Source: a phage
Reading direction: 5' to 3' (one strand)
Sequence record: PZ452606.1
DNA length: 64,000 nucleotides
In this document: positions 16,488-57,808 of the stretch, piece after piece
How positions within the stretch are numbered: the stretch's first letter is position 1
Layout of the letters: every line of letters begins with the position of its first letter
Made by a program: the position numbers and the translations under genes
Notes under the pieces: model-generated
What the model saw: the letters and a program-made list of their open reading frames with translations, nothing else
What the model was told of the DNA's origin: nothing
The model's database searches: none

Positions 16488-17396
16488 TTAAAGGTCATTC
16501 AAAAGGTCATCCAGGTCCGTGTCATCAGCACTAGATGAACTGCCAGAGCTTGAGCTCATAAAATCATCTTCAGTTTTTGTATTGAAGTCATCAACATTGA
16601 ATGCATCCAAATCATCAGCAACTTTATCAGCTTTCTTAGCAGCAGTTGCAGCGGCACCGCCCATCACAGCAGTTCCCATAACTTGACTGAATTTAGTATT
16701 CAGTTCTTCAAACGATTTGAATTTATCTTTAGAAGTCATTTCAGAAAGGTCAACCATTTGTTCGAACAGTTCTTTCTGGAAAGATTCATCGTCAATGTTT
16801 GGAATCGCAGATTGATTCAGGAATTTAGATTCGTCGTAGTTACTAAATCCAGAAACCTGTTTAACTTTCAGTACAAAGTTAGCACCTTCCCACGGACAAG
16901 TTACATCAACCGGAGTTTCACCCATTTCAACATCAACCGCAATCATCGCGTTGATTTTATCCCAGATTTTCTTACCGAAACGATATTTAAATACTTTACC
17001 TTCGTTTTCTGGAGCAGCTGGGTCTTTTACAACAAGAATGTTAGCCCAGTAAGAAGTTTTACGTTTAACAAGACTGTACTCTTTATTATCAGTGTTGTAC
17101 AGATCATTTTTACTGATGTATTGACATACTGGGCAAGAATCGTAATCACCGTGGGTAGATGAACAGTTTTCAATATACCATTTACCATTTTTCTTGAAAC
17201 CGTGATTTACAAGAATTGCGAATGGTGCTTGTTCATCATTTTTAGACGGAAGAAAACGAATTACTGCTTGACCGTTACCCGCATTGTCGAGTTTCAGTTT
17301 CCACTCGCCTTTATCTTCAGAAGAAAAACCACCTTTATTTCCAGCCAGTTTAGCCATTTGCGCAGCGAGTTCAGCAGTAGATTTACGTTTAAACAT
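16488..17396 (-). CDS. 32: single-stranded DNA-binding protein gp32
   Basis: 302 aa; sequence matches T4 gp32 including acidic C-terminus; known operator upstream. Confidence 0.97.
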
Positions 17397-54687: not shown

Positions 54688-54840
54688 CTAATGGTATATG
54701 CCCACAGTTTTAATTGTGTAAGCTTTGTGGAGCTGATTAGATAAGAGCTCGTATGTGAGCTCTTTGTCATAATCTTTAAATAGCTGGTCAATACGTTTCT
54801 TGCGGGCTTTCTTAAGCTGGCGTTTATTTAAACGAGCCAT
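54688..54840 (-). CDS. small basic hypothetical protein
   Basis: 50 aa read by eye (MARLNKRQLKKARKKR...); AGAGG SD; ATG overlaps gene 56 stop. Confidence 0.4.
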   Translation of the reverse strand: MARLNKRQLKKARKKRIDQLFKDYDKELTYELLSNQLHKAYTIKTVGIYH

Positions 54841-55358
54841 TAATAGCCTCTGTCTTGACGAGCGAAGTTTTCAGCATTTTTCAGATAATAAAGTTTAAAT
54901 ATTTCTTCAGCTGACATTCCAAGAGCAATGAATTTATTCATGAAAAAGTGAAATTGATCAATCAGTTCAAATTTAATTTCAAGTTGATCTTCAGGAGATA
55001 AATCTTGAATTTTCTTGGATTGCATTTCAGAATAACGTTTCTTCCAAGGTTTCCATACAGCAGAAGCTTCTTTTTCACCATTACTCATACCACCAAGAGA
55101 AGTATATAGCTCGCGAGTTTCGTCTGCGATATAATCGTCTTGGTTTCGCAGCCAAGCAAGAACTTCTCCTGCAGTTTCAAGTGAATCAGGATGACGATTT
55201 GTTTCTGGTTTATCATTAGCCAAACGAATCTGTAAATGCCGCTGCATATCAAGCATAACCTGCAGTGGGTCAATATTGTGCATAATATTCTCAGCATATG
55301 CACGATTTGCTTTATCAACACCTTCGATCAAATGAGCACATTCATTAAAGTAAGCCAT
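54840..55358 (-). CDS. 56: dCTP pyrophosphatase gp56 (MazG-like)
   Basis: ATG at 55358 (MAYFNECAHLIEG) with AAGGAAA SD; the track extension is upstream of the likely start. Confidence 0.85.
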   Translation of the reverse strand: MAYFNECAHLIEGVDKANRAYAENIMHNIDPLQVMLDMQRHLQIRLANDKPETNRHPDSLETAGEVLAWLRNQDDYIADETRELYTSLGGMSNGEKEASAVWKPWKKRYSEMQSKKIQDLSPEDQLEIKFELIDQFHFFMNKFIALGMSAEEIFKLYYLKNAENFARQDRGY

Positions 55359-55429
55359 TATTTTTCCTTTCAATTCATGGGTTAGTAGATTAATTATACA
55401 ATAAATATATAAAGCAATAAGGAGGACAT

Positions 55430-55630
55430 ATGATACAAAAATTAATGGCACTTGTTAATGCCATAAAAGGTAATAAGAAACGTATAGCTTTTACTATTTC
55501 TGCTATGGTAGGAATTTTACTCTGGAACTTTATTTTATCACCTGTTGCAATTGCACATGGTATTAATATTCCAGTAGTTACTCTTGATACATTCGTAGAT
55601 TTAGCATTTGCTTTAGTTGGGTTAATTTAA
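55430..55630 (+). CDS. small hydrophobic protein, convergent with flanking genes
   Basis: 66 aa with AAGGAGG SD 4 nt before ATG; only plus-strand ORF in this minus-strand block. Confidence 0.35.
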   Translation: MIQKLMALVNAIKGNKKRIAFTISAMVGILLWNFILSPVAIAHGINIPVVTLDTFVDLAFALVGLI

Positions 55631-56655
55631 ATCTTAGCATATTTAGATAACCTCATTTTAGCCATCAACCCCTGGGCAATATTATTTTTCATATATTCCA
55701 TAATTTGTTCAGGGGTTGCACCTTCCTTTCTAATCATATCATTAACATCTTTTGATTTCCAGGGAGATTTATCCCAAAACATAACCCTTTCTCCTGCATC
55801 AACTAATTTAGTCATTCGTTTGATAGTGTCAGGGTGACGAGGTTCATTATCTAAAACCCACACTCGTCTATCTTTAAATGGAACAACTTCTAGGTCTAAT
55901 TGACCACCCGTAATAGCTATACCATTTTCAATAAAAAGTGAATCTATAGGTCCTTCTAGAACATATACATCACCATCTTTAACTCGTTCGACTCCATAGA
56001 TTTTTGTTGCTTTAGGATAAGCTTTGATGGTGATATATTTTTGGGGAGCATCTTTCTTTAATGCACGTCCTTGAAAAGACTCAGCTTTTCCATTAGCATT
56101 ATAAATTGGAATAACAAGACGAGGCTCAGGTATTTCCTTTTTATATGTTCCCGGTGCTATGCTATTAACTAATTTAGGCCATTCAGTTGTAAACCAAAGA
56201 TATTTCCATTTATCCTTTGGAATACAACGAGCTTTTACATATTTTATAATTGCATGGTCTTCCGCCAGTTTATCTAATCGAACACATGACGGAAGAGATT
56301 TAATTATTTTCTTCTCAGGTTGTTTAGGAAGTTCTTTAGGTTTTTCTACTGGACGACTTTTACCTTTTTCTTTTCTTATTTCAAAGATATACTCACGATA
56401 TAAATCAGGTTCAAACTCCTTTAAATATATTCCGATTGGTGCATGATAGTTACAGTTATAACAATGAATATTTCCTTCATTATTATCACCATAATACCAT
56501 CCACGAGCTTTATTCTGGTCGGTTTTTGAATCTCCACAAACAGGACATCTAAACCGTAATTTAAAAGTTGAACTATTATTTACTTGTGTGAATTTAGGTA
56601 AATGAGCTAATGCACGGTATGCAAACTCATTATCAATCCAAGGTATTGATGACAT
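55627..56655 (-). CDS. 61: DNA primase gp61
   Basis: 342 aa; zinc ribbon CPVCG...CYNC and Toprim core; T4 gp61 length. Confidence 0.9.
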   Translation of the reverse strand: MSSIPWIDNEFAYRALAHLPKFTQVNNSSTFKLRFRCPVCGDSKTDQNKARGWYYGDNNEGNIHCYNCNYHAPIGIYLKEFEPDLYREYIFEIRKEKGKSRPVEKPKELPKQPEKKIIKSLPSCVRLDKLAEDHAIIKYVKARCIPKDKWKYLWFTTEWPKLVNSIAPGTYKKEIPEPRLVIPIYNANGKAESFQGRALKKDAPQKYITIKAYPKATKIYGVERVKDGDVYVLEGPIDSLFIENGIAITGGQLDLEVVPFKDRRVWVLDNEPRHPDTIKRMTKLVDAGERVMFWDKSPWKSKDVNDMIRKEGATPEQIMEYMKNNIAQGLMAKMRLSKYAKI

Positions 56656-56822: not shown

Positions 56823-56868
56823 ATTAACCTCTATTCATAAAAGCATTAAAAATTTGGTCATCAATAGA
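56820..56868. repeat. 49-nt direct repeat, copy A
   Basis: 48/49 identical to 57178-57226. Confidence 0.8.
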
Positions 56869-57180
56869 TGGAATAGCAACCTTTTCGGCATCATTTAGCA
56901 AATCATTAATTTCATCAGATAGCATAACACATGTGCCTTTATTTCCTGTAATTGTTACTGCGCAATTACGAACGTTTTCTTTATCAAATTTTAGGTTAAT
57001 ATTTTCGTAGTGAAAATCCTTTAATGCCGAATATATCTTTAAAATGAAATTGTCTTTTACTACAATAAACCCAACTTCACTATTAAAACGTGGTTCATGG
57101 AAACTGTAATAAACCTTTTCATCTATGAAATCGTATGAAATTTTTTCCATTTTTAAATATGAAAATTCAGAACTATACAT
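56824..57180 (-). CDS. hypothetical protein, truncated paralog of the 208-aa neighbour
   Basis: 118 aa; last 14 residues SIDDQIFNAFMNR identical to neighbour via a 49-nt repeat. Confidence 0.55.
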   Translation of the reverse strand: MYSSEFSYLKMEKISYDFIDEKVYYSFHEPRFNSEVGFIVVKDNFILKIYSALKDFHYENINLKFDKENVRNCAVTITGNKGTCVMLSDEINDLLNDAEKVAIPSIDDQIFNAFMNRG

Positions 57181-57226
57181 ATTAATCTCTATTCATAAAA
57201 GCATTAAAAATTTGGTCATCAATAGA
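57178..57226. repeat. 49-nt direct repeat, copy B
   Basis: 48/49 identical to 56820-56868. Confidence 0.8.
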
Positions 57227-57808
57227 AACATTTACTTTAGACTGTTTTTCAGATGGCAATTCATATCCACATATTACAATTTTATGATCAATATCAAAAT
57301 ACACAGAAGCAATATGATTAATGATATTTTCAGTGAAGTCTAAATCGACATCAATATCTTTTTGACCACAGCCCAAAGGATAAATAATGCGAGTAATTCG
57401 ATTATCTTTAACAAATATTCCACCGACATACTCTGTACTGCGTTTAAAGTCTACACGCCGACGAAATGAAAAATATTCAGGCTCTTTATGAGCTCGGCTC
57501 ATAGGACACAACGAATAACTAGAATAAGAGATGTCAAATCCTACGCCTTCGATATGAGCCAAAGTGTCATGATTAAACCAATTATAATCGTACGCCAAAT
57601 CCATTAGATTATAATATGTAAAAGGCACCGGATTAACATCATTAGTCACAAGCATGTAATTAGCAACTGCTATAATTTCATTGTTTTTAACGAATACAAA
57701 CCGTGATTGATGCGAATGACCTGGACCCGCGTTTTCACGATTAATGATATAACACTGGGCACCTTTATATTTGTATGTATCTTTGCACTTGTGCATTTGA
57801 TAGAGCAT
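57182..57808 (-). CDS. hypothetical protein
   Basis: 208 aa; C-terminal half similar to the 118-aa ORF. Confidence 0.55.
   Translation of the reverse strand: MLYQMHKCKDTYKYKGAQCYIINRENAGPGHSHQSRFVFVKNNEIIAVANYMLVTNDVNPVPFTYYNLMDLAYDYNWFNHDTLAHIEGVGFDISYSSYSLCPMSRAHKEPEYFSFRRRVDFKRSTEYVGGIFVKDNRITRIIYPLGCGQKDIDVDLDFTENIINHIASVYFDIDHKIVICGYELPSEKQSKVNVSIDDQIFNAFMNRD

Follow-up and report, generated by a model that had tools for sequence, protein, structure and literature searches.

A conserved gene for a putative small membrane protein at the dam-less gene 56-61 junction of a T4-like phage, with a possible distant relationship to holins

We analyzed the junction of genes 56 and 61, and in particular a small open reading frame (ORF) located there, in a 64-kb segment of a Tequatrovirus (T4-like phage; 64,000 nucleotides, sequence record PZ452606.1), which is called the window below; all coordinates refer to the window unless T4 is named. 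According to the ORF list, gene 56 (dCTPase/dUTPase) lies on the minus strand at 54840..55358, and its ATG, which reads CAT, is at 55356-55358. Its relatives (99-100% identity over the queried segment) carry a dCTP pyrophosphatase annotation. Gene 61 (DNA primase) was assigned to 55627..56655, also on the minus strand, by the ORF list and the annotation of relatives. Between them lies a plus-strand ORF of 66 codons (55430..55630), which belongs to phrog_2024 and is described in the record of phage RB18 as "similar to RB69ORF029w; RB32ORF030w". It is preceded by the Shine-Dalgarno (SD) sequence AAGGAGG (55419-55425), 4 nt 5′ of the ATG. The small ORF is convergent with gene 61, and the two stop codons overlap tail-to-tail in the sequence TTAA (55627-55630). 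A previous description of this DNA, made from its letters alone (the sequence-only reading), had reported about 270 bp between the gene 56 start and the gene 61 stop, a 66-amino-acid (aa) ORF with a strong SD on the opposite strand, and a 4-nt overlap with the gene 61 stop. As a description of the sequence it is accurate; the interval, 55359..55626, measures 268 bp. Over the 401 bp spanning the junction, phage Aplg8 shows 100% identity and RB18 99.8%, and the closest public match to window positions 1-25000 shows 96% identity.

The product of the small ORF matched the phrog_2024 profile with E = 2.2e-31 (residues 3-66 to profile positions 2-65 of 65) and qualifies as a full-length member of this family. 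The T4-like hypothetical proteins RB69ORF029w, RB32ORF030w and VR7 gp033 belong to the same family and are encoded at the same position and on the same strand. No sequence difference separates phrog_2024 from the window ORF, and a few automatic annotations within it say "holin". The gene is thus already catalogued as phrog_2024, without an assigned function; hundreds of relatives annotate it as a hypothetical protein, with VR7 gp033 among the names. A literature search for RB69ORF029w, for T4 ribosome profiling or small proteins and for unannotated T4 transcripts returned nothing relevant. By tblastn, the small ORF was found in 693 phage records, in about 500 at at least 80% identity and in 190 at less than 60%. 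When 1.84 billion representative proteins were searched with a profile, only 18 clusters were returned, all of 33-70 aa.

The pattern of substitutions indicates that the small ORF is a genuine coding gene under purifying selection. Within Tequatrovirus, the ratio of nonsynonymous to synonymous changes (dN/dS) relative to the window ORF was 0.07-0.29 in those comparisons with synonymous differences, and the amino acid changes were mostly of the I/V type. In Mosigvirus and Gaprivervirus the proportion of synonymous differences to the window (pS) was 0.57-0.75, which is near saturation, and the reading frame, a length of 65-66 codons, the start codon and the SD were kept. In at least six genera of the Tevenvirinae, the gene measures 65-66 codons and always points toward the primase gene. 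This conservation does not stem from coding on the opposite strand, because the overlap with gene 61 comprises only 4 nt.

The convergent arrangement with the primase gene recurs in loci of Tequatro-, Mosig-, Gapriver-, Jiaoda- and Gelderlandvirus. The 4-nt tail-to-tail overlap with gene 61 is also present in T4, Mosigvirus, Gaprivervirus VR26 and Gelderlandvirus; Jiaodavirus KP1079 has an 18-nt gap to the primase gene in place of the overlap. In Citrobacter phage CF1, the match to the small ORF overlaps the annotated primase. Genes on this strand are rare: in the first 50 kb of RB18, the small ORF is one of two plus-strand coding sequences (CDSs) among 94. Gaprivervirus VR26 carries two diverged tandem copies between genes 56 and 61, types A and B, which are about 22% identical (locus L004, 2495-2692 and 2701-2901), and TH40 of the same genus has the first copy alone.

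The sequence-only reading had stated that T4 carries gene 69 and dam between genes 56 and 61, and had proposed that here this region was lost and replaced by a new convergent membrane ORF. We therefore consider the T4 locus, whose current gene order is 61, dam, 56, segF, soc. The T4 junction is not equally compact: its gap between 56 and 61 measures 1149 bp, compared to 268 bp in the window, and it bears dam. Between dam and 61, T4 has a CDS-free gap of 309 bp, and this gap holds the same 66-codon plus-strand ORF (NC_000866, 17738..17938, plus strand), with 95% aa identity to the window ORF, an identical SD and an identical 4-nt overlap with gene 61. No CDS is annotated for it in the T4 records NC_000866, AF158101 and MT984581. 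The convergent ORF of the window is thus real, conserved across several genera and membrane-like, but it is not new. An alignment of the 56-61 interval with T4 and T2 showed the small ORF to be common to all, with the dam cassette only in T4 and T2.

The placement of gene 69 goes back to the old T4 records K03113 and X01416 from the 1980s, in which a "gene 69" lies between dam and soc. Because its translation yields gp56 (residues 1-162) followed by SegF (residues 169-355), this obsolete label stands for two genes, 56 and segF, that had been mis-read as one; they lie on that side of dam which faces soc, and gene 69 was never between 56 and 61. The T4 gene order given in the sequence-only reading was therefore right for dam and wrong for gene 69. 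Neither is gene 69 missing from the window in any meaningful sense; only segF is absent, and its place is in the soc-56 interval, which in the window contains soc.1/soc.2-type small ORFs as in RB18. The origin oriA, which had also been thought missing, is annotated in T4 at 16763, within the 5′ end of gene 56. The equivalent segment, 55214-55398, is kept here and shares 81% identity with T4 and 93% with T2-type phages; the motif of a MotA-box middle promoter, described below, is kept as well.

With respect to dam itself, the sequence-only reading was correct that the gene is absent at this junction: a tblastn search of the 64-kb window with T4 Dam gave a best E-value of 1.4. Local alignment showed that dam-positive and dam-negative phages differ in the stretch bounded by the promoter region of gene 56 and the SD of the small ORF. 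At this point T4 carries about 0.9 kb (dam and its upstream region), T2-type phages about 1.4 kb (dam and an ORF of 181-186 aa) and the window nothing. The dam cassettes of T4 and T2 share this insertion point in T4, T2 and about 184 records. The junction was matched in 506 records, of which 323 are compact and lack dam; T4-type dam DNA is present in 184 records, and tblastn with the Dam protein found 182 records at at least 90% identity. Since 323 compact junctions stand against about 184 dam-bearing records, the dam-less compact junction is the majority state in Tequatrovirus, and the loss of Dam, which had been considered of interest, is the commoner form. Among records named after Shigella, 19 had any Dam homolog compared to 62 with the junction, and likewise far fewer of the records named after Escherichia had Dam. 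The small ORF also occurs beside dam in T2-type and slur14-type phages.

These comparisons bear directly on the proposal that a block of dam, gene 69 and oriA was deleted and replaced by a newly gained membrane ORF. Dam is indeed absent from the window, and the 56-61 gap is reduced from the 1149 bp of T4 to 268 bp. However, the ORF coexists with dam in T4, in T2-type phages and in about 180 other records, so that the T4 sequence itself refutes a replacement; the supposed gene 69 is a mis-read fusion, the oriA segment and the middle-promoter motif are retained, and the dam-less state is that of the majority. We regard this proposal as almost certainly wrong.

Some further features of the dam region were observed. 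A simple recombination between two copies of ATAAATAT was considered as a route of dam loss and rejected, as the junction sequence does not fit the product of such an event. In Jiaodavirus KP1079, a homing endonuclease gene is found at the position of T4 dam, between 56 and the small ORF (locus L023, 1792-2346); this insertion point seems to be a hotspot at which optional cassettes occur. In the T2-type phage SV76 (L019, 1865-2410) and in slur14 (L022, 1841-2401), the minus-strand ORF of 181-186 aa lies just upstream of dam, and its product gave weak, sub-threshold Pfam matches to the restriction endonuclease family DpnII (E = 0.005-0.01; 16-17 bits versus a cut-off of 23). DpnII cleaves GATC, the Dam site, and the dam cassette may therefore be the remnant of a GATC restriction-modification module. 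GATC is scarce in the window, with 79 sites observed versus about 207 expected from base composition, despite the absence of a dam gene there.

Two promoter-like signals are nested in the short region between gene 56 and the small ORF. On the minus strand, a putative MotA-type middle promoter for gene 56 (55393..55417) is composed of the mot box TTGCTTTA (55417-55410), an 11-nt spacer and the -10 hexamer TATAAT (55398-55393). Its position is that of the "mot-box of promoter P(M) 16.53" and -10 hexamer annotated in X01416 upstream of the old gene 69, now 56; the segment is homologous to T4 and T2 and precedes the SD of gene 56. On the plus strand, the late-promoter-like box AATAAATA (55400..55407), which matches the T4 late box TATAAATA at 7 of 8 positions, is situated wholly inside the spacer of this opposite-strand promoter, 30 nt before the ATG of the small ORF. 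The T4 late consensus TATAAATA is located at -13 to -6; among T4-like phages its T at -13 shows poor conservation, A or T being common (PMC1524935).

We examined 17 gene copies, which came from several genera and from phages with and without dam, and 15 of them had an ATAAATA core 20-30 nt 5′ of the ATG. The exceptions were the second tandem copy of VR26 and one Gelderlandvirus locus; a GGAG(G) core stood at the SD position in all 17 upstream regions. In dam-positive phages the box is provided by a different, non-homologous sequence upstream of dam, and their gene 56 promoter spacer lacks it. That phages with and without dam supply the box from non-homologous sequences argues for selection on the ATAAATA box itself. 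The motif is under-represented in the window (16 observed vs. 38 expected from shuffles), and no minus-strand copy lies close by except the TATAAATA that precedes soc, at a site listed in X01416 as the putative late promoter P(L) 15.32. A promoter scan of 55000-56000 (within 400 bp of the small ORF) gave no sigma-70-like plus-strand site, and a sigma-70 early promoter for the small ORF was rejected on this result. We infer from these signals that the small ORF is probably transcribed late from a gp55-type box, with a predicted transcription start site (TSS) near 55413. In VR26, the box precedes only the first tandem copy, which suggests co-transcription of the two copies. For comparison, differential RNA sequencing of T4 reported 150 phage TSSs, 22 of them antisense (bioRxiv 10.1101/2024.04.04.588121).

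The interval also contains RNA signals on both strands. A terminator scan revealed a weak terminator-like hairpin with a T-run 3′ of gene 61 on the minus strand (55436..55464; -8.9 kcal/mol, z = -2.6), read as 55464-55436 and antisense to the small ORF within codons 6-12; it may end gene 61 transcripts. On the plus strand, the segment 55430-55464 includes two in-frame ATGs in the Tequatrovirus copies, M1 and M6 with Lys4 between them, the second being placed in the stem of the hairpin ATGGCACTTGTTAATGCCAT. This pair recalls the dual-start arrangements of holins and antiholins; M6 is not kept in other genera. Downstream, a strong inverted repeat CAACCCCTG...CAGGGGTTG (55666-55718, plus-strand RNA) lies inside the 3′ end of gene 61, beginning about 36 nt beyond the stop of the small ORF, and the plus strand of 55600-55720 folds with -35 kcal/mol (z = -5.9). 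Such a repeat could terminate or stabilize a late transcript.

Given these signals, the ORF might be incidental and the interval conserved for regulation, i.e., for the gene 61 terminator, the promoters of 56 and dam, or a late antisense RNA damping primase. The minus-strand hairpin with its T-run and the middle-promoter motif fit this idea, as do a plus-strand transcript that would run antisense into gene 61, the overlap leaving no room for a terminator, and the strong fold of the plus-strand RNA just 3′ of the stop. We nevertheless consider it very unlikely that regulation is all there is. The substitutions are mainly synonymous or conservative (see the dN/dS values above), and frame, length, SD and start persist across genera at saturating synonymous divergence. 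In addition, a protein motif is kept at 20-30% identity, VR26 has a tandem paralog, and homologs occur in unrelated, prophage-type contexts of enterobacteria. An antisense role could coexist with coding.

The encoded protein has the features of a small membrane protein, in agreement with the sequence-only reading, which had called it a hydrophobic membrane peptide. The best 19-residue segment (residues 23-41) has a mean Kyte-Doolittle value of 2.0. The N-terminal segment of about 18 residues contains five K/R (net charge +5), and the C-terminal 25 residues contain no K/R (net charge -2); this pattern of a positive N-terminus and a negative C-terminus recurs across the family. An AlphaFold2 model based on an alignment of 15 sequences (mean predicted local distance difference test score, pLDDT, of 79) showed helices at residues 2-12, 16-42 and 52-63, and a conserved G-x-x-[LIV]-P turn separates predicted helices of the protein. 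Residues W32, N33, P38, G44, P48 and G64 are invariant or near-invariant, and the family motif WN[FLY]..x..P...G..[LIV]P is the one kept at 20-30% identity. Based on the positive-inside charge pattern and the AlphaFold2 model, the product is most likely a small inner-membrane protein with a cytoplasmic N-terminus (N-in), one transmembrane (TM) helix and a short C-terminal helix that would be re-entrant or on the periplasmic side.

The only homology detected beyond the family is to holins. Distant family members matched phrog_3427, annotated "holin", at E = 5e-4 and 2e-3, a 97-aa relative matched it at E = 5e-4, and distant members matched PF11351 (GTA_holin_3TM) at E = 0.03-0.1. All these matches map to one and the same C-terminal stretch of the holin profiles. 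PF11351 and phrog_3427 comprise three-TM holins that occur in phages and in the Rhodobacter gene transfer agent; a protein with the full PF11351 architecture has about 120-150 aa and consists of an N-terminal helix, a long charged linker, a pair of hydrophobic helices in the C-terminal part and a basic tail. As a comparison set we used seven phage genes annotated as holins, which had been retrieved with a self-written consensus probe; the probe itself is no evidence. All seven pass PF11351 independently (best E = 2e-24), and six of them adjoin an endolysin or cell-wall hydrolase gene. Aligned with hhalign, the small-protein family and the seven holins gave a probability of 90% (score 37.4, 50 columns), and the T4-type members alone gave 87% against PF11351 holins. 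In controls, 200 + 200 composition-preserving column shuffles reached maximum scores of 18 and 23, and the reversed alignment scored 10. Single matches to Ldr_toxin, Syndecan, Mlo, MASE7 and MPN163 were sub-threshold and inconsistent between members, and were rejected as noise caused by TM composition.

Relatives of 94-97 aa (P0127 and others), encoded in enterobacterial genomes and metagenomic contigs, connect the two groups: they match phrog_2024 by their C-terminal half, and their alignment with PF11351 covers the full length at 95% probability, so that these forms, on profile evidence, bridge the small family and the PF11351 holins. The profile homology between the window protein and the holins extends over about 45-50 columns. 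It includes a TM helix with aromatic-N/Q-[FLY]...P, a Pro-rich turn with a conserved acidic residue and a final G-rich hydrophobic helix, and both have a short N-terminal amphipathic helix. The window protein differs by its length (66 aa versus 130-153 aa) and by the absence of the long charged linker, the basic tail and an endolysin neighbor. Overall, the family looks like a distant offshoot of the three-TM PF11351 holins, shortened to their C-terminal half and deprived of the charged linker and the basic tail.

The enterobacterial (E. coli, Raoultella) and metagenomic homologs, from six loci (L028-L033), have 67-97 aa. Their genes come after two unknown genes (about 200 aa and 107 aa) that form a conserved pair, and in most cases lie where a block of phage genes borders on host genes. 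Close upstream of the homolog, three of these loci (L029, L030 and L032) contain a gene for a T4-type lysozyme as well as a SegE-like GIY-YIG fragment. In the P0127-type loci L031 and L033, the homolog is located directly upstream of a gene for a RelA_SpoT-domain protein.

Taken together, we favor, at somewhat better than even probability, the explanation that the window contains an ordinary dam-less 56-61 junction with a late, holin-related small inner-membrane gene whose product might have a holin-like accessory role. Transcription would start late from AATAAATA, giving a leader of about 17 nt with a strong SD. Inserted into the inner membrane, the product would have a basic, cytoplasmic N-terminus, a long TM helix (about residues 16-42) bearing the WN[FLY]...P motif, and, after the G-x-x-[LIV]-P turn, a short hydrophobic C-terminal helix at the periplasmic side. 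Late in infection it might act as a holin-like accessory protein, modulating membrane permeabilization, lysis timing or lysis inhibition alongside holin T. The lysis-related role as such is a guess prompted by the profile matches.

Holin T, a protein of 218 aa, has a single TM helix, N-in topology and a large periplasmic domain. Like T, RI and RIII of T4, the small protein would be membrane-associated and, by inference from its promoter-like box, made late, and it would share the single TM helix and the N-in orientation with T. The genes for T, RI and RIII are located elsewhere in the genome, T is more than three times as long as the 66-aa protein, and the searches performed detected no sequence similarity of the small protein to T, RI or RIII.

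Several observations weigh against this explanation. The window protein had no Pfam match even at E ≤ 10 and none in NCBIfam, and the best family members reached 13.6-15.3 bits, below the PF11351 gathering threshold of 24.8 bits. The full PF11351 architecture is not present: of 152 template positions, the 66-aa protein aligned only to 68-124, and neither the N-terminal half nor the basic C-terminal tail exists in the family. Neither does the gene lie in a lysis cassette, as its neighbors, genes 56 and 61, belong to replication and nucleotide metabolism and no endolysin gene adjoins. The type B subfamily alone aligned to PF11351 only weakly (20% probability), and Foldseek searches of BFVD and PDB returned family members or noise. 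The promoter-like box reads NATAAATA and not TATAAATA; T4 and T2 have G as its first base, and Gaprivervirus has C. Finally, T4 mutants defective in t do not lyse, so the small protein cannot substitute for holin T and is unlikely to be a self-sufficient holin.

A serious but less probable alternative is a real small membrane protein with a job other than lysis, such as superinfection exclusion by a block of DNA entry, counter-defense or anchoring in late assembly, its holin likeness reflecting ancestry only. In favor of such a role, the 41-56 region harbors sp (spackle) and dmd, which are accessory host-interaction genes, and the enterobacterial homologs occupy positions typical of accessory genes, some of them directly upstream of RelA_SpoT-domain genes. 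Moreover, the protein has no charged C-terminal tail, its gene has no endolysin neighbor, and T4 already possesses holin T. However, a late-promoter-like box fits the timing of lysis or assembly better than that of exclusion, Imm and Sp being encoded by early genes in T4, and the sole detectable homology is to holins.

A bolder version of the holin-related explanation, which we consider unlikely, is that in T4 and its relatives the gene encodes a miniature holin-family membrane protein that is made late and could be a hitherto unrecognized factor of lysis inhibition or of the T4 lysis clock, modulating for example the triggering of T or depolarization of the inner membrane, and that its transcript might in addition serve as an antisense brake on primase.

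Two observations concern the neighboring genes. Located 3′ of gene 56, a soc.2-type ORF (54688-54840, minus strand) encodes 50 aa compared to 67 aa in RB18; its DNA is 99.6% identical to that of RB18, with two gap positions that cause a frameshift, indicating a pseudogene or a sequencing error. Beyond the gene 61 start, two adjacent minus-strand genes (56824-57180, 118 aa; 57182-57808, 208 aa) encode gp61.2-type paralogs sharing the C-terminal motif SIDDQIFNAFMNR. T4 has one 61.2 gene, and RB18 and slur14 have both.

In summary, the absence of dam from the window is a routine accessory-gene polymorphism, the supposedly new ORF is old, and the locus is an ordinary one. The T4 reference records examined omit a conserved gene that is under purifying selection in several genera of the subfamily, and proteomic, transcriptomic and knockout studies relying on that annotation miss it. 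The nesting of a late-promoter-like box for a rare plus-strand gene within the spacer of the putative gene 56 middle promoter would represent a compact, bidirectional packing of signals, and a late transcript of the small ORF running antisense into gene 61 could also matter. The apparent link to PF11351 offers a concrete and cheap hypothesis in the best-studied phage lysis system.

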